A DNA stretch of 64,000 nt from Escherichia phage 172-1. The stretch is from the sequence record NC_028903.1. The stretch is one strand, 5' to 3'. This document shows, piece after piece, positions 1-62,387 of this stretch. Under the pieces are notes generated by a model, which was given only the letters and a program-made list of their open reading frames with translations, did no database searches and was not told where the DNA came from. The position numbers were made by a program, and so were the translations under genes. Numbering within the stretch: position 1 is the stretch's first letter; every line of letters begins with the position of its first letter.

Positions 1-21
1 CCCGATTGGGCAGCCTTTTAT

Positions 22-273
22 TTATTTCTGTTTTAAACCAAGCAGACGGTTTTGTAAAAACTCATCTTCTGCGTTATAAAGGAATGCGAACATTAATTCC
101 TTAGCCATATCTCTTGAGCAATTAAGACACTTAGAGATTTGCGTTAGTTGCATGTTGCGATCAGTGTGTTCCATCAAGGCAATGCGAATGATCTCTCGCA
201 TACCTATTACATGGGTTGTTTTAACCGGCATAGGTCCAATTACCTTGCTTATTACGGATGGCTGACATTGCAT
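22..273 (-). CDS. hypothetical early protein
   Basis: 83 aa ORF at distal end of leftward early operon; no recognisable motif. Confidence 0.35.
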   Translation of the reverse strand: MQCQPSVISKVIGPMPVKTTHVIGMREIIRIALMEHTDRNMQLTQISKCLNCSRDMAKELMFAFLYNAEDEFLQNRLLGLKQK

Positions 274-718
274 GAACCCAGAAGCCTTCCAGTTTCAGAG
301 CACCGTTAGCTACTGCATCCATACGTTCAGGGCGGTTCATACGTTTGGTTGATACTTTCATACCTATCTCTCTTTGTTAGTGGAGGCATTATTGCCAGTT
401 GATATAAGGGATAGCCCTAGTCAGTAGACTAATCCTGACCGCGTACTCATTGCCGACCTTCTCTGCCTAAGAGTTCAGGTTCTAGAGCTATCTCTTATTC
501 CAACTGGTGAAGACTCCCTACCCCTAGGAAGTCTCCTGAATCCCAAACCAATACGTACCCCTACATATCAGAAAGTCTTTCGAAAATTGACAGGTTTTAG
601 TCTAGCACCGGATGTTCGAGCAAGCTCTCCCTAGCGGTGTGGCATATGCCTGATTAATAAGTTAATGAGGAACACCCTCACATAGCCCTCTGATAAACAC
701 AAGGGCTATAAGTCGGTG

Positions 719-937
719 TTACTTTTGAGATAAACACAGATCAGGACGTGGCATAACAGTTGTTGATAGACCAAAGACTTCAACATAACCACTGTTCAAG
801 TTAGCAGCTTTACACAGACCATCAGGAGTTTTATCTTCTAGCATCAGCCAGAAACGTCTATCGTAAGAGAAAACATCACCACCCTTAACGTCTTCTGCAT
901 TTGCATATTTAGGATAATCGACTACTTTAATTTCCAT
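719..937 (-). CDS. small early protein, GDVF-motif paralog family (member 1)
   Basis: 72 aa; shares KGGDVF-type N-terminal motif with four neighbouring ORFs. Confidence 0.5.
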   Translation of the reverse strand: MEIKVVDYPKYANAEDVKGGDVFSYDRRFWLMLEDKTPDGLCKAANLNSGYVEVFGLSTTVMPRPDLCLSQK

Positions 938-947
938 CTAATTGCCC

Positions 948-1166
948 TTATTGATAAATAGAAAGGTGGATGAGTTTATTCACATGAGCGAAGTTAGGTA
1001 GGATTTGCATCTCATTGTTGAAGATATTAAAACAACGAACCCCGCCCTCTACAGCATAAGCAGATTTCTGAAACAGACTACCTCCCCACACAAATACATC
1101 ATGTGTTTCAAGAGATCGTAACTGAACAGCCTCGTCAACAACCTTCTTTTCGATGTTCATGTTCAC
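948..1166 (-). CDS. small early protein, GDVF-motif paralog family (member 2, divergent)
   Basis: 72 aa; THDVFVWGG motif resembles the family core; tandem position. Confidence 0.4.
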   Translation of the reverse strand: MNMNIEKKVVDEAVQLRSLETHDVFVWGGSLFQKSAYAVEGGVRCFNIFNNEMQILPNFAHVNKLIHLSIYQ

Positions 1167-1414
1167 TTCCGATTAGTAACTACTGCATCATGGATAACTG
1201 AAACAGGTAAGTTTGAATCTAGCTTCATTACTTGATTGGTGCTTAAACTAAGCACTACACAACCATTCCGAAGATCAGTCTCTGACACATGTGGTGTATA
1301 TAACTGAACGATCATGTAATAATCAATACATGTTGCCTTAACTTGGAACACATCGCCAAGTTTCAAATCACCCACACGCAATTCTTTAGCTTTCATCTCA
1401 AGATCAATCTTCAT
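1163..1414 (-). CDS. small early protein, GDVF-motif paralog family (member 3)
   Basis: 83 aa; LRVGDLKLGDVFQV motif; 4 nt overlap with neighbours. Confidence 0.5.
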   Translation of the reverse strand: MKIDLEMKAKELRVGDLKLGDVFQVKATCIDYYMIVQLYTPHVSETDLRNGCVVLSLSTNQVMKLDSNLPVSVIHDAVVTNRK

Positions 1415-1640
1415 CTTTAGCCTCTATGTTGGTTATGTGGAGATCACTACGCACTTGGCAGACCTCATCCCGTTTAATAGGCATGAGCTTTCCAGTAATC
1501 ACATCAACACAGTTCACATAATTTTCTGCGTATAGAGTGTCAGTTCTGATATAAAGGAACCCTTTAGATTCAAACAGAACCCCCGGCTTCATGTTGTTTA
1601 AGCGAAGCATGGTACGATCAGATTTAATATTGACTTTCAC
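1404..1640 (-). CDS. small early protein, GDVF-motif paralog family (member 4)
   Basis: 78 aa; NNMKPGVLFESKG motif in same relative position. Confidence 0.45.
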   Translation of the reverse strand: MKVNIKSDRTMLRLNNMKPGVLFESKGFLYIRTDTLYAENYVNCVDVITGKLMPIKRDEVCQVRSDLHITNIEAKDED

Positions 1641-1642
1641 TG

Positions 1643-1864
1643 TTAATCCACCTTATTGGTAAGTCGAGCGTTAACTTTCTTAACAACTTCATGAGTGAAA
1701 CCACCATAAATCTCACCAGTTGAAAGGTTAATATATTTTCTCTGATCTCCTGATTTGCTATAAGCACTTGAGGACATATAATAATCACTCGGGTTCAGAG
1801 GGAACTGGAACACATCACCTGATTCTAAATCCCCAAGAGTTAAAACCTTTGGGGCGTTGTTCAT
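1643..1864 (-). CDS. small early protein, GDVF-motif paralog family (member 5)
   Basis: Start moved to internal ATG (MNNAPKV...) just after stop of upstream gene; LTLGDLESGDVFQF motif. Confidence 0.5.
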   Translation of the reverse strand: MNNAPKVLTLGDLESGDVFQFPLNPSDYYMSSSAYSKSGDQRKYINLSTGEIYGGFTHEVVKKVNARLTNKVD

Positions 1865-1865
1865 A

Positions 1866-2162
1866 TCAATTATCACTGTTAATCTCCTGCTGCTTAGCAA
1901 TAGCCACTCGCAAGTCTTCATTAGCACGAGCAAGGCGCAACACTTCATGATTGAGATTCTGAAGACGCTTGTTTCTGTCTTCAACTTGCATAATAAGATC
2001 GTTAAGAGTTGCTTTAACTTTCTCATTATACATCTCATCCACTCGAACTAGGGACTTATACATTCTCTCCCAGCTTGCTGCTTTGTTTCTAAGGATAATA
2101 AATCCTAGAACGCTGATAGTTAAACAGAGTACAAAAAGGAATTTATATACTTCTAAAGTCAT
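1866..2162 (-). CDS. membrane-anchored coiled-coil protein
   Basis: 98 aa; N-terminal hydrophobic helix then heptad-like charged region. Confidence 0.45.
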   Translation of the reverse strand: MTLEVYKFLFVLCLTISVLGFIILRNKAASWERMYKSLVRVDEMYNEKVKATLNDLIMQVEDRNKRLQNLNHEVLRLARANEDLRVAIAKQQEINSDN

Positions 2163-2361
2163 ATTATTTACCCTTTATCAGAGATTAAAAGTAATATTAT
2201 TTAAGTAAGTTATATTTAGTAAACTTATTTTCTAAGAAATTTTCAAAGGGTCTATATACAGAGCATTACCCATAGTCCCAGAATACTACCATCTTTTTCA
2301 ATAAATTTACTAAGTGGTTGGTTTATAAAGGAATTTAGTTTGTCAAATCTGGCACTAGTGA

Positions 2362-2751
2362 TTATTCCCTAGAGCTATTATCGAACACTAAATCGCCACA
2401 ATACATAGGATTGGCATACCATTTTGGCACCCCTTCGCTCTTACTCTGAAAGTAAGTCCCACTATACAGCGGAACATAATTCTTCTTAAGGGCACGTTTA
2501 GCAAGTCGCTCGCTTTCTCCAATGGCTTGCTTAGTCATCGGATTTTTATCACGAATCAGCTTTACATAACGTTTATAAGGTTTCTCCTGTTTTAATAGTA
2601 CCGGAATCCACTCAAACTGGTTCTTTTGTCTTATCACCTGTTCAGCGGTCAGTTTTCGTTGGGCCATTCTATTTATCACGGTATCCGCAACTAAAGCCTT
2701 ACATGCGGTTGGCTGGTTCCCTGCCTCATAATAAATAGTCAATGTCAACAT
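2362..2751 (-). CDS. SleB/CwlJ-like cell wall hydrolase
   Basis: 129 aa; IYYEAGNQP...VADTVINR and NQFE motifs typical of SleB hydrolase domain. Confidence 0.55.
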   Translation of the reverse strand: MLTLTIYYEAGNQPTACKALVADTVINRMAQRKLTAEQVIRQKNQFEWIPVLLKQEKPYKRYVKLIRDKNPMTKQAIGESERLAKRALKKNYVPLYSGTYFQSKSEGVPKWYANPMYCGDLVFDNSSRE

Positions 2752-2864
2752 TAGCTGGGCCGTTGTTATCAGAACTTGCTACCTCCTGTTTTGTTGTTTC
2801 AATAAACACCCTCGAAAAGATGCTTATAGAAACACCCATCCCTTTCGGAATAGGTGCTATCTTT

Positions 2865-3182
2865 CTATTTATAACTTACACCATCACCTTTTACAGCTAT
2901 TGTAAGTGGCGATCTGGTGTTTAATGGGGTGAAGTTCATGTCCAGCTCATATCCCACTTTGAGAATCAATTTCAACAATGTGTCGATGGAGAACTTTGAA
3001 AGCTGTCCATTCATGAGGCTACTAATCCTCGGCTGGCTAACACCTAGCTTCTCTGCGGCAACACACTGCGACCAACCTTGATCACGAATTAACTTCGTAA
3101 GAATAATGATCAGCTTGGACTTCAATGAAAGCATGTTGGCCTCTACAGGGTCTGTACTTATCAGCTCGAACGGGTTTTTCAT
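2865..3182 (-). CDS. XRE-family HTH protein resembling HigA-type antitoxin
   Basis: 105 aa; HTH core AAEKLGVSQPRISSLMNGQ followed by FSIDTLLKLI; ATG at 3180-3182. Confidence 0.6.
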   Translation of the reverse strand: MKNPFELISTDPVEANMLSLKSKLIIILTKLIRDQGWSQCVAAEKLGVSQPRISSLMNGQLSKFSIDTLLKLILKVGYELDMNFTPLNTRSPLTIAVKGDGVSYK

Positions 3183-3206
3183 ATAAAATTCCTATACAAT
3201 AGGCAT

Positions 3207-3232
3207 AAAAAAGCCCCAGCCGTAGCCGGGGC
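3207..3232 (-). terminator. rho-independent terminator-like hairpin
   Basis: GCCCC-a-GC / GC-c-GGGGC stem preceded on plus strand by A6, giving a T6 tail on the minus transcript. Confidence 0.45.
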
Positions 3233-3381
3233 GGTTATTAACGTGATACTGCTTCCATGAATCCTATCATAAGTATCAATAAGGTGATAATAACACCAAA
3301 AAGCATACCACATAGGAAGAAAAATCCACCTTCCCCTAAATATGAAATAGCTGATTCCACGGATAACTCCTACAGCAACGC

Positions 3382-3403
3382 AAAAAGCCGCTCAAAGGCG
3401 GCT
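3382..3403 (-). terminator. rho-independent terminator
   Basis: AGCCGC / GCGGCT stem with 6 nt loop, U-run on minus transcript; follows gene 3484..3927. Confidence 0.5.
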
Positions 3404-3483
3404 ATGTGGAAGCTTCAAATGGGGAGAGGGCACGACGCGACAGAAAGAGCGTCATAGTACTAAAAGAGGGGACTGTATTCCTA

Positions 3484-3927
3484 CTACTTAACCCTTGCCT
3501 CTTTGATGGGGTCAATGTATTTCTCAACGCCCCACTTGTGTTTACTGTCTGCGTAGAAAACATCAGGCGCACACTGGCTACTTTTAGGGAATGCTTGAGG
3601 GTCTTTCGTGCTACCTTTAAACTTCTGCTTACCACGGGTGCGACCATTACAGAAGATTTCTAACTTCTTCTCCTCTTCTGTTTTAGCTCCCCCGCTCTTT
3701 AATAAAGAACGTTTATGATCGGCTAACAATAACGCATCAGCACGATGAACGCGATGGCCTACACGCTTTGCCACACTAGAAGGAATATGAGATTCAGCCT
3801 CAGCCTTTGCAGCACGACGTTTTAAACTGCGCTTACTGACGTGATTGGTTGCCTTTGGCTTCTCTTTCTCCAGTTCAGAGATAGAAAAACAACGCCCGCC
3901 TTTCATGCTGATTTTTGATTTAGCCAT
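3484..3927 (-). CDS. basic hypothetical protein
   Basis: 147 aa, K/R-rich; no recognisable domain. Confidence 0.45.
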   Translation of the reverse strand: MAKSKISMKGGRCFSISELEKEKPKATNHVSKRSLKRRAAKAEAESHIPSSVAKRVGHRVHRADALLLADHKRSLLKSGGAKTEEEKKLEIFCNGRTRGKQKFKGSTKDPQAFPKSSQCAPDVFYADSKHKWGVEKYIDPIKEARVK

Positions 3928-3996
3928 TGTCTTATTCCTTTTAGTGATAAGTTATATCGGGCAAGCCCATCAAGGTGACAGGCTTGAACAAATAAC

Positions 3997-4206
3997 TCAA
4001 TCAAGTAAACCGAATGACTTCCAACTGCGTAGAAGGATTGTACCATCATCCATAGTCACGCATAACTTTAGTAGTTTCTTATTGGCACTGCTTACCGTTG
4101 TAATTCGTCCGGTTGTGCATTTACCTTTATTGCTGTAAAGATATATAACACGACGGCCTAACAAACGAGATGGCGCTTTCTTAAACTCTGAAATATTAGT
4201 GATCAT
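3997..4206 (-). CDS. hypothetical protein
   Basis: 69 aa ORF in tightly packed operon. Confidence 0.4.
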   Translation of the reverse strand: MITNISEFKKAPSRLLGRRVIYLYSNKGKCTTGRITTVSSANKKLLKLCVTMDDGTILLRSWKSFGLLD

Positions 4207-4427
4207 AATGCTTGATACCTTTGAATATGTTCAATACGGGTAGATTGAGCAAATGACGCTTTAACCGCCATCTTTCTAACTTCTTCCTTACGTTGGTTAG
4301 TGTGCACAGTATCCCAATGATTGTTATCACGTTGGCGCTGTAATATCTTACTACATTTGCGATGGTTCCCCGTGCTGCGATGTTTCTCACAAATAGGACA
4401 CTTGCCAAAATTATTACTGAATATCAT
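4203..4427 (-). CDS. hypothetical protein with Cys/His cluster
   Basis: 74 aa; CPICEKHRSTGNHRKC suggests a small zinc-binding motif. Confidence 0.4.
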   Translation of the reverse strand: MIFSNNFGKCPICEKHRSTGNHRKCSKILQRQRDNNHWDTVHTNQRKEEVRKMAVKASFAQSTRIEHIQRYQAL

Positions 4428-4642
4428 TTTCTTAATCCCATCTTTCTTAAGATACGGCCTAACGTTGTTTCTTGCGTGATAATATAGCTGATCGCCTCAC
4501 GTTCCAACGTTTCAATTTTCATTGGCGACGGATACCATTCACCAGTAAGCACGCATTTACATTCAACGCCATACTTTTTAGATAGTCGGTAATGTTGACC
4601 GTTGACAAGATTCCGATAAATCGTGGTATGCGTAATTAACAT
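4424..4642 (-). CDS. hypothetical protein
   Basis: Track start is GTG; nearest ATG at 4640-4642 (MLITHTT...). Confidence 0.4.
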   Translation of the reverse strand: MLITHTTIYRNLVNGQHYRLSKKYGVECKCVLTGEWYPSPMKIETLEREAISYIITQETTLGRILRKMGLRK

Positions 4643-4672
4643 GATCGTCACCTTTGATTATATTCTTTGATT

Positions 4673-4695
4673 AATGCACTGAATCAATGCACTGA
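4673..4695 (-). repeat. tandem decamer AATGCACTGA x2 (3 nt spacer) upstream of gene 4424..4642
   Basis: Exact direct repeat read in sequence; candidate operator. Confidence 0.6.
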
Positions 4696-4729
4696 TAAAA
4701 GAAAAGGCGCTACCCGTTAAGATAGCGCC
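4696..4729 (-). terminator. rho-independent terminator
   Basis: GGCGCTA / TAGCGCC stem, 10 nt loop, UUUUCUUUU tail on minus transcript; follows 4754..5653. Confidence 0.55.
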
Positions 4730-4753
4730 TCATGTTTATTATAATCGTATTAC

Positions 4754-5653
4754 TTATACTGCCTGACGTGCCGCCATAATCTCAGCTGCCTTGCGCAATA
4801 CTTCTTCCTCTTCTTCTTTCGCAGCTTGTTCGGTACGGGTAGCAACCGTTGAAGAGATACGACCGCGCAGACTTTCTAACTTCTCCTGAATAGCCGCAAT
4901 AGTCTTTTCCATTTCATCAGCGTATGAATCGAGCGATTCCAGCTCCTTGCTTGATGCGTTCATCAGATAATCGTCTGAGATCGCTACCGTTGAGGCCGTG
5001 ACTTTCTTGATGAGTGAATCAAAGGACTTTTTAACCTTGCCCACGTCTTCACTCAAGGCAATAGTGTTATCACTGGTAGCGCCATTGCGCTCATCAGCCA
5101 GCAATTTGGCTTCAATACGGATTGCATTCAAGCGTTCAACTAAAGAGTAAATATCCTGATTAAAATCTTCCTTATTTTTCGCCGGGATTTGAAGGTGGGC
5201 CGCCACGTTGTCATTGCAACCTTTGAAGAAGTTAGGATTATCGACTTCAATTTCACGGCCTAAAGCAAAGTTTTCGAAAGCATTTGACCAGCGAGCGCGG
5301 TTTTGTTCCATTTTGGCCTTAATTTGCGCTTCTTTCGCATCTTCTTTCGCTTTCGCTTCACCTTCCAGATTAATCCACTTTTTACGCCCATTTGCCGCAT
5401 CGGTGTTGAACTTGATAGGAGTTAAGAAAGTAATTGCAGTGGCGATCACGTCCATATCGCGGAAACGTTCGGTTAACAGAAAATCAACTGCCGACTGCAA
5501 TACGTCCAGCTTTTTACCGTTACTGCGGAAGTGCTGCAAGTGCCCTAACAGAAAATTAGAAACATCCTGTTTAATCGCCGCGTTATTGCTGCGGATATTG
5601 TTAGCCAGTGCGTTAAAGCCAGATTCTTTTACCAGATTGAAAATTTTAGCCAT
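4754..5653 (-). CDS. first early protein after leader (function unknown)
   Basis: 300 aa; ATG at 5651-5653 with GGTGA RBS; helical, charged C-terminus. Confidence 0.55.
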   Translation of the reverse strand: MAKIFNLVKESGFNALANNIRSNNAAIKQDVSNFLLGHLQHFRSNGKKLDVLQSAVDFLLTERFRDMDVIATAITFLTPIKFNTDAANGRKKWINLEGEAKAKEDAKEAQIKAKMEQNRARWSNAFENFALGREIEVDNPNFFKGCNDNVAAHLQIPAKNKEDFNQDIYSLVERLNAIRIEAKLLADERNGATSDNTIALSEDVGKVKKSFDSLIKKVTASTVAISDDYLMNASSKELESLDSYADEMEKTIAAIQEKLESLRGRISSTVATRTEQAAKEEEEEVLRKAAEIMAARQAV

Positions 5654-5754
5654 GATATTCACCTTTCAATTGTAAGGGCACTATGCCCCGCTCTCTATGA
5701 GCTTTTTAAGTCGCCATTGACTTATCAATAAACACTCATCATTAAGTAATTATT

Positions 5755-5802
5755 GATAAGCGGGGCGGTCTTATCAGGAGTTAACCTTGCCGCCCCCTTA
5801 TC
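5755..5802 (-). other. long stable hairpin in early leader (candidate RNase III or regulatory site)
   Basis: GATAAG-c-GGGGCGG pairs with CCGCCCC-CTTATC, 13 bp stem with one bulge, 21 nt loop, ~100 nt upstream of first early ORF. Confidence 0.4.
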
Positions 5803-6473
5803 CGTGATGTTTCATCTGGTATCTTTAATTAGTCGCTATAAACGAAGCCGACCTGATAGCGATGATCAATCATCACAATAAGGCAGTGCGTCCGACTCTA
5901 TTTAATTACATTGCTGTAACCGTCGGCAATATCGTTTATTATACTTTCGCTCTCGCTTATCCTTTATATCAGCTCTCAATCGCTAGTCATCGCCCACTAC
6001 GGGATACTGTTGCGAAAAAGTCACTAACCGCCTAACATTCCGGCGTTTTATATCTTTCGGCGAGTTTACTACATAAACCGACTATGTACTTTCATCATAA
6101 GACGAATCTCAAGCCGTTCGCATCGTAAACGTTCACACTAAACCTTATTGTTAAATAGCAATTTGCTACCCTTTAACCACCCCCCGCCGCTCTCAATTGA
6201 GCGTTAATTCGTCGGGCTTGTCTGCCCTGATTAGCTTTTTCACTGTAGCACCGTGTTAGCGATGGCCGCCGCTACCCTTAACCGTGGGCGATTAGCTTAA
6301 ACCGTTGCGTGTACTCAATGAGTCCGCTTATCAGTGGTGACGTTTCCAGTTAAGGGATTGTAAAACTGTTTACCCTGATGTTTTAGGGAGTTTTACGCCG
6401 TTTTATCTGGTATGCTTTCCGATGGTTATTATCTTCCAGCATATTTAACCGATATATGGGGACGTTTAAATTA

Positions 6474-6484
6474 TTAAAGAGCGG
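6474..6484 (-). promoter_or_regulatory. boxA-like element (CCGCTCTTTAATAAT on minus transcript)
   Basis: Matches rrn/lambda boxA core GCTCTTTAA. Confidence 0.45.
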
Positions 6485-6572
6485 TAAATCTGTCAGTGTG
6501 CTTTCTCACACTACGCAACTGTTAGCCGTTGTTACGCTTTTCACTGAAGCGGTGTTTTGCTTGAGTGTGCTC

Positions 6573-6601
6573 ATTATGGACCATGATGTTTTCGCTGTCA
6601 A
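6573..6601 (-). promoter_or_regulatory. sigma70-type early promoter P3 (TTGACA-N17-CATAAT)
   Basis: -35 at 6596-6601, -10 at 6573-6578 read on minus strand. Confidence 0.6.
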
Positions 6602-6706
6602 TCGCTTTTTTAATCTTTTTCGTCGTTCCCTTTATTGGGAGGATATATCAATCAGCTTTATTTGATTGAAGATTAAGCGATAAGGCTTAACTCATGATTC
6701 ATATTG

Positions 6707-6717
6707 TTAAAGAGCGG
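6707..6717 (-). promoter_or_regulatory. boxA-like element (CCGCTCTTTAACAAT)
   Basis: Near-identical to E. coli rrn boxA GCTCTTTAACAA. Confidence 0.5.
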
Positions 6718-6834
6718 TTACTACATTCACAGCTTAACACGTCGTGTTAGCTTGTCAAACTCTTTTTATCATCTTCTTTTATTCTTTTCCCTTATCTCGC
6801 GTGAATCTATGCGAAAGGGCAAGATGATAAATTT

Positions 6835-6845
6835 TTAAAGAGCGG
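6835..6845 (-). promoter_or_regulatory. boxA-like element (CCGCTCTTTAAAAAT)
   Basis: ~25-40 nt downstream of P2 start site. Confidence 0.45.
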
Positions 6846-6876
6846 GGATGTTTCACGTCATCGCTGACTTGTGCTC

Positions 6877-6904
6877 ATTATAGGTTAGGCTTTCCAGTTG
6901 TCAA
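6877..6904 (-). promoter_or_regulatory. sigma70-type early promoter P2 (TTGACA-N16-TATAAT)
   Basis: Perfect consensus hexamers; -35 at 6899-6904, -10 at 6877-6882 on minus strand. Confidence 0.7.
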
Positions 6905-6943
6905 ATACTTTTTCAAGTATTTTTTCACTTTCTAGCCTGATTT

Positions 6944-6953
6944 TTAAAGAGCG
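6944..6953 (-). promoter_or_regulatory. boxA-like element (CGCTCTTTAAAAA)
   Basis: Inside repeat copy A. Confidence 0.4.
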
Positions 6954-7092
6954 TTTAAAGCTGTATGGCTCCCATAACACCATTTGATAATCAGATAACC
7001 TGCGATTATTCCGGGGAATGGTATCCGCCTGCCTGCGTCTGACTTGCTTCACTCACTAGGGAGTTACTTGAGCGGTCATCTTGTCTTTCTAA

Positions 7093-7173
7093 GCTCATTA
7101 TAGTTCAGGCTTTCCGGCTGTCAAATACTTTTTCAAGTATTTTTTCACTTTCTAGCCTGATTTTTAAAGAGCG
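7093..7173 (-). repeat. ~81 bp direct repeat copy B (promoter P1 plus AT hairpin plus boxA)
   Basis: Near-identical to 6873..6953. Confidence 0.8.
7097..7124 (-). promoter_or_regulatory. sigma70-type early promoter P1 (TTGACA-N16-TATAAT)
   Basis: Perfect consensus hexamers; -35 at 7119-7124, -10 at 7097-7102 on minus strand. Confidence 0.7.
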
Positions 7174-7174
7174 G
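7164..7174 (-). promoter_or_regulatory. boxA-like element (CCCCGCTCTTTAAAAA)
   Basis: Inside repeat copy B. Confidence 0.4.
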
Positions 7175-7293
7175 GGCAAGTTTCCTTGCCTTGTATGTTT
7201 TACATCGTACCCGATACAAATCAGTATACGCCAGCTTTCACGAAGTGCAATAGGGTAAGGCAAATTATTTTAAACTTTTTCACTATAGGAAGA

Positions 7294-7305
7294 TAAAAGA
7301 GCGGG
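7294..7305 (-). promoter_or_regulatory. boxA-like element variant (CCCGCTCTTTTA)
   Basis: Sixth copy of the AGAGCGG core in the same orientation. Confidence 0.35.
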
Positions 7306-7411
7306 CGCACGTGATACATCAAAGGAAACGGCTTGCATTGCAACAATAGGCGGCCTAAAACGCACTATAGCGAGCTAAAAGGGAGTAAGGTATACAATCA
7401 CCTTATAAAAG

Positions 7412-7436
7412 AAAAAAGCCTCATGGCGAGGCTTTT
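7412..7436 (-). terminator. rho-independent terminator (weaker on plus strand)
   Basis: GCCTC / GAGGC stem, A6 upstream and T4 downstream on plus; ends the 8855..7511 operon. Confidence 0.6.
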
Positions 7437-7510
7437 AGGGAGGTTTTAAAGCATCAGATAGATTATGACCATAGGCATGACCACGGCACAATAAAGGAGA
7501 AAGATCAAGC

Positions 7511-7876
7511 CTATGGATTTACACATTGACCATTACCGGACTCAATTTCATTCATGGACTCATCAAAGAGCGTCAACGATGAGCGCATCAAGTGATTGAC
7601 CGTGATTTGTTTACCAGTGATTTCATTTACCAGTAAAATAGTTTTACTATCTGATTGCACATGATCAAAATCATTTACATGCAAAATAATAACCTTAGGT
7701 GACTTTTTACCGGTTTCATAGTTTTCTATAAGGTAGGTACATTGCAAGCCGTCAACCGTAGCAGGGGAAAACGTTGCAGCCTTAACGCTACCCATAGCCG
7801 ATAACAGCACACCTAACAGAAGAATGACCAGAAAAAAGCCTACAACCGTTTTAATGACGAATCTAATAAACCACAT
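7511..7876 (-). CDS. secreted early protein (signal peptide)
   Basis: 121 aa; N-terminal hydrophobic segment followed by AxA-like cleavage region. Confidence 0.5.
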   Translation of the reverse strand: MWFIRFVIKTVVGFFLVILLLGVLLSAMGSVKAATFSPATVDGLQCTYLIENYETGKKSPKVIILHVNDFDHVQSDSKTILLVNEITGKQITVNHLMRSSLTLFDESMNEIESGNGQCVNP

Positions 7877-8069
7877 AACAATAAACCTCTTTAATTAGTT
7901 TAAGAATATCGAAAGCGGCAACAATCAATAAATAGTTTAAAGAAACGAAGCCAATGACAAACAAAAACAGAAAGAACACAACCGGACACCTAAAAAACGT
8001 AAGAATAAAGCATATCAGCGACGAACAACGCCACTGCAACAACGAATAAGCAACGCAAAAAATAATCAT
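7863..8069 (-). CDS. small membrane protein
   Basis: 68 aa, strongly hydrophobic. Confidence 0.35.
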   Translation of the reverse strand: MIIFCVAYSLLQWRCSSLICFILTFFRCPVVFFLFLFVIGFVSLNYLLIVAAFDILKLIKEVYCYVVY

Positions 8070-8082
8070 GAATCATTTTTTG

Positions 8083-8334
8083 TCACCATTTTGGCAGATC
8101 ACAATCAAGAAGACCAGCAAGCGACAAATCACCGTCAACATAGATCGAACGAAAATCATCGCGATTAATATCAATGCGCACCAATTGGAGCCATCTTTTG
8201 GCCTCGTTAAAACTCATGGAACAAAAGGCAACGGTAGGCAGTATTACGCTACCTTCTTTCAAGCCGAACGAGATAAAAGTATCACAAACAAAACAAGAAA
8301 CACCGCTGGATAATTTGATCACTTTGTTACTCAT
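8083..8334 (-). CDS. hypothetical protein
   Basis: 83 aa ORF in operon. Confidence 0.4.
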   Translation of the reverse strand: MSNKVIKLSSGVSCFVCDTFISFGLKEGSVILPTVAFCSMSFNEAKRWLQLVRIDINRDDFRSIYVDGDLSLAGLLDCDLPKW

Positions 8335-8363
8335 TTTTTTGTTACTCCTGAAAAATAGGTTAT

Positions 8364-8855
8364 TTATTTACTGGCCTTGATGCAGTTGGCTAAATTAATG
8401 TGAACGGTATAAACAGCGTTATCAGCGTTATTGTAAACAGTAGTCGCAATCATCGACTGATTAACCGGGCCATAACTGACCAGATTCGTGACAGCTTTCG
8501 CATGGCTGTAACGTTGTACAGTGCCATACGTCACCATATCCGCATCGTTATCAGTACGCTTGAGAACTAGATCACTGTTAGACTGATTGTCTAGTGTTTT
8601 GGTACTAACGACCAGACCATCACGGGAAACGTTACTAAATTTAACCTTTAAAACGACCTGATTGGTGTCACTATCAGCACCATTGCAAATCATCCAACCT
8701 TTATTGATGGAACTAACGAAGACACTAGCCGCATCAGTTGCAGGAGCAGGACTAGCAACAGCCTTATCAGGAAAGGAAGTTACCAGCGCACTAACACCGA
8801 TCGCGGCGACTAGTGCATAACTTGCCAGATTAATCATCTGCATTGGTTTAGTCAT
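8364..8855 (-). CDS. secreted early protein (signal peptide)
   Basis: 163 aa; N-terminal MTKPMQMINLASYALVAAIGVSALV... signal-like segment. Confidence 0.5.
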   Translation of the reverse strand: MTKPMQMINLASYALVAAIGVSALVTSFPDKAVASPAPATDAASVFVSSINKGWMICNGADSDTNQVVLKVKFSNVSRDGLVVSTKTLDNQSNSDLVLKRTDNDADMVTYGTVQRYSHAKAVTNLVSYGPVNQSMIATTVYNNADNAVYTVHINLANCIKASK

Positions 8856-8890
8856 TTGTGAAGCCTCATTGATATGTAATAGATAGGGAT

Positions 8891-8919
8891 ATAATAGGAC
8901 ACGCTTTCTTACATTGCAA
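8891..8919 (-). promoter_or_regulatory. sigma70-like promoter (TTGCAA-N17-TATTAT) for operon 8855..7511
   Basis: Hexamers read on minus strand ~30 nt upstream of start. Confidence 0.5.
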
Positions 8920-9154
8920 CCATCTTCCTAACTTTCTTTCTTTCTACTAAAAGTAGCGCCATTGAACTTACTAGTCCTATTTCTTGGGCTTAACTTGCTA
9001 TCAGTGAACGATTCGACTACTTCACAAACGATCAGAACAAGTAAAGGAAATACTACAGCCATTGCCATCATTATTAAGATAATCATTTCTATCACTTCAA
9101 TCACTCAATCAATAGGCTTCAATTTACTACTACTTAACAAGGAAGACAAGCGAC

Positions 9155-42500: not shown

Positions 42501-42510
<10 letters not shown>
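41977..42510 (-). CDS. hypothetical protein (possible DUF3310-like)
   Basis: 177 aa; KYAYRHKDKNKAQDLLKVVHYAL resembles a recurrent phage motif; weak. Confidence 0.3.
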
Positions 42511-43794
<1,284 letters not shown>

Positions 43795-61274: not shown

Positions 61275-61478
61275 TTAGTAGAACGAACGAATTTCATCCC
61301 ACACTTGTTCCTGTTCTTTCCTATAAAAAGAAAGTTGGGTCTTGAACATCTCCACTGATGATTCAAAGTTTTTAGATTGTGCAGCTTCAACGAAACGTTC
61401 ATGTCGGTTGATTTTGCACCGTAGCATTAAATACTTGGCTTCAAGTCTCCGAAGAGCCTGTCTTTTCTCAAGATTCAC
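61275..61478 (-). CDS. hypothetical protein
   Basis: 67 aa. Confidence 0.3.
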   Translation of the reverse strand: MNLEKRQALRRLEAKYLMLRCKINRHERFVEAAQSKNFESSVEMFKTQLSFYRKEQEQVWDEIRSFY

Positions 61479-61887
61479 TTTTCAGATACTCTGACCAGTC
61501 GCCAGATTCAACCAGAACGTCTTGTTCTTCGTCAATGTGATAAATCCAAGCGATAACAGTTTCACCTGAGTCCAGCTTAACGGCAATCTGGGTGCGTTGA
61601 TAGAAGCTATCTTCAGGGCTACGTTTGTTGTAACCTTCCAGTCGGTCATATGGACCTTCCAGACCTGCTTTGTCAGTAGCAAACACTTCTACACGAACAG
61701 GCTTATTGTTATTGCTGTGTGCGAGAGAGATGCTTGGGAAGTAGGAACCACCATAACGGAACAGATCGAAGTTGTCTTCAGTCCAACCTTCACCGATTGA
61801 CTTAGCACCAGCTCGGTCATTAACTAAATAGTTAGCTTGACCACGACGAAGAGAACCATAAGTTGCTACGTAAATTACTTCTGACAT
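61468..61887 (-). CDS. AIG2/GGACT-like gamma-glutamyl cyclotransferase-fold protein
   Basis: 139 aa; N-terminus VIYVATYGSLRRGQANY matches the YGTLKRGxxNH signature of GGACT/AIG2-like enzymes. Confidence 0.55.
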   Translation of the reverse strand: MSEVIYVATYGSLRRGQANYLVNDRAGAKSIGEGWTEDNFDLFRYGGSYFPSISLAHSNNNKPVRVEVFATDKAGLEGPYDRLEGYNKRSPEDSFYQRTQIAVKLDSGETVIAWIYHIDEEQDVLVESGDWSEYLKSES

Positions 61888-61956: not shown

Positions 61957-62142
61957 TTACTCTGTAATAAAGATTTTGATTACACCGCAGATTACTTCAT
62001 CATTAAAAGAAGCAACAACTTCTTTATCCTGACAGAACTCTATCTTATTGTTATAAGAGTTGAAGTAATCAGCGTCAATATCCATTGCTCGCATTTCGCC
62101 AGCTGCATTGGTATCTTTAAACAGAACTTTATATTTATTCAT
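61957..62142 (-). CDS. hypothetical protein
   Basis: 61 aa. Confidence 0.3.
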   Translation of the reverse strand: MNKYKVLFKDTNAAGEMRAMDIDADYFNSYNNKIEFCQDKEVVASFNDEVICGVIKIFITE

Positions 62143-62387
62143 AGATAAGTTACTCCCTTGTCTTGTTGTGCTTCAGTGATGATACGTTCTACGCATTCCA
62201 TAGAGTATTTATCACCACGTTTTAGGAAAGTCACAATTGCGGAGAACTGATTACCAATCATTCGCTGATTAGTAATACCCCACTCCTCACACAAATTACG
62301 CAACTCTTTACGAGAGCCTACAATAAGAGGCTCTTTTTGTTCCATCATTCCATTTTGTACTAGATCTTCCAATGAAAACATATCCAT
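62139..62387 (-). CDS. hypothetical protein
   Basis: 82 aa. Confidence 0.35.
   Translation of the reverse strand: MDMFSLEDLVQNGMMEQKEPLIVGSRKELRNLCEEWGITNQRMIGNQFSAIVTFLKRGDKYSMECVERIITEAQQDKGVTYL

Follow-up and report, generated by a model that had tools for sequence, protein, structure and literature searches.

Virulent phages can carry the antidote to a poison without carrying the poison. T4 Dmd, which counters RnlA and LsoA, is not homologous to a host antitoxin, and the pseudo-ToxI of phage PhiTE is an RNA mimic. AdfN is an enzyme that follows type IV logic, a DarG-like NADAR protein acting against DarT1; it is a host-antitoxin homologue gained several times independently, and the authors of its 2025 description knew of no earlier antitoxin homologue employed by a lytic phage and regard type II orphans as hard to recognise (PMC11825919). 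Here we describe a gene of Escherichia phage 172-1 that is best read as a variant of this known strategy in which the phage carries the antidote. The gene lies at 2865..3182 on the minus strand of a 64-kb stretch of the phage genome (NC_028903.1), which we call the window and whose numbering is used for all coordinates. Similar to phages with systems of the Dmd/AdfN type, this virulent phage encodes a homologue of a host antitoxin without the toxin. Unlike Dmd, AdfN and ToxI, the candidate is homologous to a type II antitoxin, a toxin-binding protein with a helix-turn-helix (HTH) domain.

The closest described systems are the modules that pair a Gp49 toxin with an HTH_37 antitoxin. Gp49 is a ribosome-dependent mRNase of the RelE superfamily (PMC11980606), and the combination Gp49/HTH_37 is recognised as a type II pair within the HigBA superfamily, for example in Tn3-family pairs (PMC7157771), with Tad-Ata and the A. 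baumannii HigBA lineage as further examples; the studied Gp49 modules are all toxin-first operons (PMC5906591). HTH_37 is accordingly treated as a HigA-superfamily antitoxin of Gp49 mRNase toxins (PMC7157771, PMC11980606, PMC5906591). A Gp49-family toxin has been reported to act in abortive infection as part of a toxin-antitoxin-chaperone (TAC) system (PMC11980606). The phage protein has the same PF13744 domain as the antitoxins of these modules (Tad-Ata of pAMI2, N15 and SXT; the Tn3-family pairs; the HigBA2/3-type modules of A. baumannii and M. tuberculosis). In contrast to them, the phage gene is a single-gene cassette in a virulent podophage, with neither a toxin partner nor a native promoter or operator, and its nearest bacterial relatives are convergent rather than toxin-first.

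The open reading frame (ORF) is intact, starts with ATG and encodes 105 amino acids, and the original prediction had both its sequence and its XRE-type HTH exactly right. The protein scores 61 bits against Pfam HTH_37 (PF13744; E=9.5e-17, gathering cutoff 27 bits), with residues 14-82 matching profile positions 9-77 of 80. HTH_3 also passes (E=3.6e-7), and PHROG 2339 ('HTH DNA binding protein') matches with E=4.9e-28. The ORF is a real gene and no chance reading frame. In an AlphaFold2 model (mean predicted local distance difference test score, pLDDT, 77.6) residues 1-11 are disordered and a long helix spans 12-35; the HTH (39-57) is followed by a helix at 66-76 and, at the C-terminus, by a beta-hairpin (79-98). 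The nearest solved structures, by sequence as well as by fold, are NE1354 of Nitrosomonas europaea (2a6c) and an XRE protein of R. palustris (2o38), both HTH_37 entries from structural genomics without assigned function (best phmmer E=2.3e-13; best Foldseek template modelling score 0.81 on the target, root-mean-square deviation 1.2 Å over 66 columns at 39% identity). These two structures span only the HTH_37 core, whereas proteins of the convergent clade described below also have an N-terminal segment, a C-terminal hairpin and a tail. Solved HigA and HipB antitoxins resemble the protein at the generic XRE level only, and the HigA matches are weak (7ewc, E=0.004; 6af3, E=0.008). The curated HigA equivalog TIGR02607 (NCBIfam antidote_HigA) gave 15.4 bits (E=0.012) against a cutoff of 47.7, and the protein is for this reason not to be filed as HigA proper. 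The name under which the gene had first been proposed, an orphan HigA/XRE antitoxin-like gene, therefore holds in one part: orphan antitoxin is strongly supported by a clade paired with Gp49 and by the missing toxin, whereas HigA membership is not, and the C-terminal motif once taken as typical of the HigA family is typical of HTH_37 and not of the curated HigA model. We assign the protein to the HTH_37 antitoxins of the Gp49/HTH_37 (Tad-Ata-like) type, with 'HigA' applicable at the superfamily level only (PMC7157771).

The ancestry of the gene is evident from its bacterial relatives. The window belongs to a phiEco32-like podophage (Kuravirus, Gordonclarkvirinae) and is 93-96% identical in nucleotide sequence to many E. 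coli and Shigella phages over 1800-4800. Outside the phages, all sampled bacterial relatives with at least 48% identity (48-74% at the amino acid level) adjoin a Gp49 (PF05973) gene. These paired relatives occur on small ColE1/Mob plasmids of the Yersinia, E. coli, Enterobacter and Klebsiella type, in Pectobacterium, Vibrio, Aeromonas, Pseudomonas and Halomonas, and on one Xanthomonas plasmid. An iterated Gp49 profile run over all fetched loci placed the toxin gene of the close relatives (at least 48% identity) tail to tail with the antitoxin gene, 15-45 nucleotides (nt) away, while in 13 distant relatives (35-44% identity) it lies immediately upstream on the same strand, as in a classical toxin-first operon. 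The convergent loci are L003-L013, L020-L026, L072-L076, L079 and L081, and the co-directional ones L027-L043. In a neighbour-joining tree the window protein nests in the clade of HTH_37 antitoxins that are paired with a Gp49 toxin of the RelE superfamily. The convergent layout is that of the gammaproteobacterial relatives, in contrast to the toxin-first modules described previously (PMC5906591), and the antitoxins of the convergent clade carry a C-terminal extension of ~20 residues (F-x-P...P...KKAxV) that the co-directional ones are without.

The closest paired relative of the kuravirus copies, at 64-74% amino acid identity, is the antitoxin of the small ColE1-type plasmids pIGRW12 (NC_010898.1) and pIso00270_05 (NZ_CP095130.1). 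The plasmid antitoxin and the kuravirus proteins share the start MKN(P/S)FELISTDP and have the same length except for the last 4 residues. On the plasmids a full-length Gp49 gene (toxin WP_176450233.1 on pIGRW12, WP_072842283.1 on pIso00270_05) points towards the antitoxin gene from 15 nt away, and a consensus sigma-70 promoter precedes the antitoxin gene; the kuravirus copy is without either. RefSeq annotates the plasmid antitoxins (pIGRW12 3767-4075, minus strand; locus L076 2421-2729, minus strand) as 71 amino acids from an internal start; the conserved ORF has 102, with the consensus sigma-70 promoter upstream of it and homology to all relatives over its full length. In the published kuravirus genomes the orphan gene is likewise misannotated or overlooked. 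In pEC-N1203-2Af.1 the gene (4065-4509 of locus L001) is recorded as two, a 49-residue 'hypothetical protein' and a 75-residue 'recognition of host receptor', and in SGF2 and SR02 it carries no annotated feature at all.

A cognate toxin, which the original prediction had named beforehand as the discovery that would count against it, was sought by four routes. With three cognate-type Gp49 toxins as queries, tblastn against the 64-kb window gave a best E of 0.58; the iterated Gp49 profile matched nothing in the six-frame translation of the window; a Pfam scan of 59 small window ORFs returned no RelE, ParE, HigB or Gp49 family; and tblastn with a Gp49 toxin against 50,697 phage records matched no Kuravirus. 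That collection includes the complete genomes of three HTH-carrying kuraviruses. For phage 172-1 itself the toxin search covers the window, with ~13 kb of the genome lying outside it. The gene is thus an orphan: neither the window nor the complete genomes of HTH-carrying kuraviruses yielded a cognate toxin, whether adjacent or elsewhere on the replicon. PADLOC gave sub-threshold HTH matches to PDC-M64 for the antitoxin and none for the toxins.

The gene occupies a slot whose framework is the same in phiEco32. On the minus strand of the window this framework consists of intrinsic terminator 1 (3386..3403), downstream of the gp120 homologue; the strong intrinsic terminator 2 (3207..3232; GCCCCGGCTACGGCTGGGGC followed by T6), directly upstream of the gene and common to phiEco32; the sequence TGTATAGGAAT; an ORF; and a hairpin (CACCTATTCC-GAAA-GGGATGGGTG, then a T-rich run; 2833..2857) found downstream in phiEco32 and all aligned kuraviruses. 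The ORF of phiEco32 is gp119, whose product is YadA/adhesin-like and ends in GVSYEW, and in KBNP1711 the slot is empty. The junctions were read from an alignment of phiEco32, four HTH-carrying kuraviruses and two plasmids. At the 5' junction (3176..3192, minus strand) the framework ending in TGTATAGGAAT joins plasmid-type TT(C/A)TATGAAAAA through a microhomology of 9 nt, TCTATGAAA; plasmid-type sequence starts at TTCTATGAAAAA, where phiEco32 has TCTATGAAA, and a Shine-Dalgarno-like AGGA (3193-3190, minus strand) belongs to the phage framework. The 3' junction (2865..2894, minus strand) lies at GGCG[A/C]TGGTGTAA, a microhomology of 12/13 nt common to the 3' end of phiEco32 gp119, where plasmid GGCGATGGTGTAA, ending in the antitoxin stop, meets adhesin GGCGCTGGTGTAAGTTAC. 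The ancestral antitoxin stop, TAA at 2878-2876, falls inside this microhomology. In the window a shortened A-run (2892-2889) shifts the frame, and the protein ends in GDGVSYK, read from the remnant of the adhesin C-terminus; SGF2, SR02 and L078 have a different frameshift, with a stop after VKK. A 3' junction inside the coding region, suggested by the GDGVSYK end as compared with KKAMV, was dropped on the evidence of this alignment.

Both junctions lie at microhomologies that bracket exactly the ORF, and we therefore read the event as an ORF-for-ORF replacement, in which recombination at two microhomologies put the antitoxin ORF in place of the adhesin-like one. The convergent toxin gene, which starts 15 nt beyond the stop, was left out of the swap, as were the consensus promoter of the plasmid and a TATA-rich palindrome. 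Plasmid homology starts ~5-10 nt before the ATG; the plasmid promoter region was not carried over, leaving no native promoter region through which the gene could be autoregulated, and binding elsewhere could still occur. No match to CGTATATATATATAAGG, an operator-like palindrome in the plasmid promoter, occurs in the window even when 3 mismatches are allowed; this is weak evidence, the palindrome being a putative operator.

Two further observations concern this slot. For phiEco32 gp119 (phi32_119; 4003-4800, minus strand, of locus L002) RefSeq places the start at a TTG upstream of terminator 2, probably too early; translation from an ATG at ~4682 begins with a typical signal peptide, MKAIVLSSILALSVMASPVFA, and continues through collagen-like repeats to the YadA-like C-terminus. 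An exported, adhesin-like protein in an early-gene slot of a phage is odd in itself. At the other end of the captured gene, all kuravirus copies have lost the native tail with which paired antitoxins end (KKAMV or KKAVV), through two different A-run frameshifts. The lost tail resembles the ClpX C-motif-2 degrons of MuA (RRKKAI) and YbaQ (RAKKVA) (PMC9775585). By this likeness, a further possibility is that tail loss might stabilise the orphan antitoxin in the kuraviruses.

Toxin-less HTH_37 copies recur in other phages. At least five phage lineages carry them, each sister in the neighbour-joining tree to the paired antitoxins of its own host group, a pattern of at least five independent acquisitions. 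The Kuravirus copies and those of Karamvirus, T4-like phages of Enterobacter, are sister to E. coli and Enterobacter plasmids of the pIGRW12 type; that of Kujavirus of V. cholerae is sister to Vibrio (77.5%); those of two Xanthomonas phages to a Xanthomonas plasmid; and those of three IMG/VR contigs (UViG66/68) to enterobacterial plasmids. The orphans of Kuja, XAJ2 and PhiXhv-28 each form part of a co-directional phage operon. The most direct case is Karamvirus EnC15, where a stretch of 542 bp (locus L014, 2491-3032) matches pIGRW12 at 99.8% identity. The fragment begins 10 nt 5' of the ATG and holds the whole antitoxin gene, encoding a 100% identical protein, together with only the 3' 208 nt of the toxin gene; we regard it as a capture caught in the act. 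It is inserted in pinA, the Lon-inhibitor gene, with an in-frame fusion of PinA residues 1-42 to the antitoxin. The pinA insertion (EnC15 2381-3296, L014) is also found in KMB17 and KMB20, pinA being the T4-type inhibitor of the host Lon protease (phrog_2167). The C-terminal part of PinA forms a separate ORF in EnC15, where the record labels the fusion 'inhibitor of host Lon protease' and leaves a 68-residue toxin remnant (Gp49 profile positions 32-90) unannotated on the opposite strand.

Within the kuraviruses the gene has been retained intact in seven genomes or contigs (the window, L018/L019, pEC-N1203-2Af.1, SGF2, SR02, L078 and the P0002 contigs). Pairwise synonymous divergence (dS) is 0.1-0.42 and the ratio of nonsynonymous to synonymous divergence (dN/dS) 0.04-0.33, values that bespeak purifying selection. 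The gene is accessory and not core, found in 3 phages (4 records) among 98 related records. Across 15 toxin-paired antitoxins, 33 alignment columns reach a conservation of 85% or more, and the kuravirus copies keep 92% of these residues. Those kept outside the DNA-binding core include L7, D11, V13 and E14 in the N-terminal segment and F84, P86, P92 and K98 in the C-terminal hairpin. The HTH is intact as well, and its SQPR(I/V)S recognition segment is invariant across the family.

The gene sits in the leftward early cluster, as laid out for phiEco32 (PMC8948821). Three sigma-70 early promoters at 6573..7124 (minus strand; two match 12/12 consensus positions and one 11/12) are directed leftward, towards the gene, from a distance of 3.4-3.9 kb with three terminators in between; they are presumably the phiEco32-type early promoters. 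The two perfect TTGACA-16-TATAAT promoters lie at 7124-7097 and 6904-6877 and the 11/12 promoter at 6601-6573 (all minus strand), within an apparent direct repeat of ~220 bp (6573-7263, minus strand); the same peptide, LKIRLESEKILEKVFD, occurs in the spurious ORFs 6885..7052 and 7105..7263. The interval from terminator 2 to the ATG yielded no sigma-70-like promoter. Just 5' of the ATG, TATTGTATA matches 8/9 positions of the phiEco32 gp36 promoter element tAATGTAtA (PMC8948821). We do not claim it as a promoter, as one-mismatch matches to this element occur in the window at chance level (22 as compared with 20.9 expected) and the element is also present in phiEco32, which is without the gene. 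The window further encodes an orthologue of gp79 (62139..62387, minus strand), 99% identical to the phiEco32 protein, which is an inhibitor of host sigma-70 transcription (PMC8948821; see also PMC12276001).

The reading we favour is that the gene is an orphan type II antitoxin, captured from a plasmid of the pIGRW12 type, that would neutralise Gp49 toxins of the host and so prevent abortive infection; we regard this as an even call between right and wrong. An ancestor of this Kuravirus would have taken the antitoxin gene from a small enterobacterial plasmid, leaving the Gp49 toxin gene and the plasmid promoter behind. The gene would be expressed early from the phage sigma-70 promoters by read-through of the upstream terminators, using the Shine-Dalgarno element of the slot. 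gp79 would then stop host sigma-70 transcription, as is known in phiEco32, and labile resident antitoxins would not be replenished; we propose gp79 as the trigger because such a shutoff would deplete them, which may activate resident toxin-antitoxin (TA) modules. The phage antitoxin would bind the freed Gp49 toxin of modules on resident plasmids or islands, translation would continue and the infection would not be aborted. The intact HTH may also let the phage protein occupy the operator of the resident module. The comparisons show the antitoxin ancestry, the orphan state of the gene, its capture junctions, the purifying selection on it and its recurrence in other phages; the binding of a toxin and the benefit to the phage are what we infer from them. 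Such an anti-abortive-infection decoy, the role first suggested for the gene, fits all the comparative evidence gathered and is favoured over the early regulator that had been named as its alternative.

A broader proposal, which we put forward tentatively and with some doubt, is that HTH_37 orphans are the first family of proteinaceous type II antitoxin homologues used by virulent phages for counter-defence. They would have been captured repeatedly, as toxin-less single-gene cassettes, from plasmids and islands of the phages' own hosts (by Kuravirus, Karamvirus, Kujavirus, the Xanthomonas phages and others). On this view they would act against the convergent Gp49/HTH_37 module of small gammaproteobacterial plasmids, which has gone undescribed and would be an unrecognised abortive-infection system, triggered when the phage shuts off host transcription.

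Several findings weigh against an antitoxin decoy. The convergent module is present in only ~10 of 5,426 complete E. coli genomes, always on plasmids, and a selective benefit to the phage would consequently be occasional. In the literature searched there was no report of the convergent Gp49/HTH_37 module as a TA pair or as a phage defence, and the module matches nothing in PADLOC. Type II toxin-antitoxin pairs are usually specific, and identity between the kuravirus protein and its nearest paired antitoxin amounts to only 64-74%. Position 71, which is E in 15/15 paired antitoxins, carries an E71K charge reversal in the window subclade; among the kuraviruses K is found only in the window and L018/L019, with G in L078 and E in pEC-N1203-2Af.1, SGF2 and SR02. 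A search of the PDB for a solved Gp49-type toxin or complex gave nothing usable to map the toxin-binding surface. The kuravirus dN/dS exceeds the 0.01 measured for a pair of plasmid copies, possibly a sign of partly relaxed constraint, and the gene lies directly behind a strong terminator with no dedicated promoter found.

Plain transcriptional regulation remains the main rival. The protein might tune early genes or host takeover by binding phage or host DNA through its HTH, with its antitoxin ancestry mere history. Type II antitoxins of this type are DNA-binding autoregulators, the HTH with its invariant recognition segment is intact, the gene is part of the early cluster, with sigma-70 early promoters upstream of it, and PHROG labels relatives 'HTH DNA binding protein' or transcriptional regulator. 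However, only 3 of ~98 related phages have the gene, and elsewhere the slot is empty or filled by an adhesin-like gene, so the gene is no part of a core regulatory circuit. The swap carried neither upstream nor downstream DNA, so no operator came along, and the flanks are the same as in phages without the gene; nor does the operator-like palindrome of the plasmid have a match in the window. The residues outside the HTH that are conserved in toxin-paired relatives have been kept, and a need for a generic regulator would hardly account for unrelated phages having repeatedly captured one antitoxin clade in a host-matched way. We consider a purely regulatory role unlikely, if still the strongest of the competing accounts. 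Quite unlikely, in our judgement, is the related idea that the protein acts on the operator DNA of the resident module, repressing toxin synthesis or perturbing the module or its plasmid, with toxin binding secondary or absent. The conserved DNA-binding domain speaks for it; the toxin of convergent modules must have its own promoter, a possible target of repression; and the Karamvirus copy, identical in protein sequence to the plasmid antitoxin, must recognise the same operator. But transcriptional repression leaves existing toxin protein in the cell, the operator is putative, and extra repression would be redundant where gp79 already shuts off host sigma-70 transcription.

The gene might instead be a neutral or nearly neutral passenger, plasmid DNA that arrived by illegitimate recombination and has no function in the phage. 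Such an origin would suit capture by microhomology-mediated recombination, a rare and patchy distribution among kuraviruses, the decay of the last 3-4 codons through two different frameshifts, and a dN/dS (0.2-0.3) above the plasmid value. It sits poorly with an ORF that is intact in seven diverged genomes, with dS reaching 0.42 and dN/dS well below 1, and that has kept 92% of the family-conserved residues. The G+C content of the gene, moreover, equals that of the phage flanks, with no anomaly, as fits long residence. Podophage genomes are packaging-limited, and several phage families have independently kept the antitoxin and not the toxin. We therefore think a passenger very unlikely. HTH proteins often accompany anti-defence genes (Aca proteins), and a 40-residue hydrophobic ORF lies immediately upstream, so the protein could also be an Aca-like regulator or immunity partner of this small ORF, acting as a hidden toxin or anti-defence gene. 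A strong terminator separates the two genes, however, and their distribution is independent: KBNP1711, ev_rybdy3 and ev_rybdy8 have the small ORF without the HTH gene, and pEC-N1203-2Af.1, SGF2, SR02 and L078 the reverse. For this reason the small ORF was rejected as a cognate toxin or partner. The HTH gene stands alone between a strong terminator and a hairpin, and is not co-transcribed with, and conserved beside, an anti-defence gene in the manner of the Aca type; an Aca-like role is largely refuted already and appears extremely improbable.

The surroundings of the gene proved to be as first described, with two terminators (called at 3403-3386 and 3232-3213, minus strand) and the tiny hydrophobic ORF upstream and a SleB-like hydrolase downstream. 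The hydrophobic ORF (3238..3360, minus strand; GTG start, AGGAG Shine-Dalgarno; phrog_38462, E=1e-29) sits on an insert of ~130 nt between the terminators; it translates as MESAISYLGEGGFFFLCGMLFGVIITLLILMIGFMEAVSR and is common to KBNP1711 (CH16_gp118) and ev_rybdy3/8. The downstream neighbour is a Hydrolase_2/SleB-like gene (Pfam; 2362..2751, minus strand). Rfam detected no known RNA family in window positions 1-9000. Elsewhere in the window, the 59 small ORFs include a weak match to Pfam Imm41, a polymorphic-toxin immunity family (E=3e-4), in an ORF not localised despite an extra scan, and there is a sub-threshold YAcAr/SLOG match at 42501..42893 (minus strand); these two could be further conflict-related accessory genes. 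A clear match identifies a gamma-glutamyl cyclotransferase (GGACT) gene at 61468..61887 (minus strand).

It is a matter of debate whether ordinary type II TA pairs act as phage defence and what phages do in return. The present gene can be identified confidently as a type II antitoxin homologue, through its toxin-linked relatives, junctions that are readable base by base, and the plasmid-identical copy with a decapitated toxin gene in EnC15. The comparison also offers a testable pair, the pIGRW12-type toxin against the phage orphans, together with sequenced plasmids and natural phages that have the gene (SGF2, SR02, pEC-N1203-2Af.1) or are without it (phiEco32, SU10), and it flags a small-plasmid TA module with a convergent layout as a candidate abortive-infection system. 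If the protein were a regulator only, the finding would reduce to a neat example of microhomology-mediated gene replacement in an accessory slot of a phage. If the antitoxin reading is true, type II protein antitoxins would join the counter-defence repertoire of phages.

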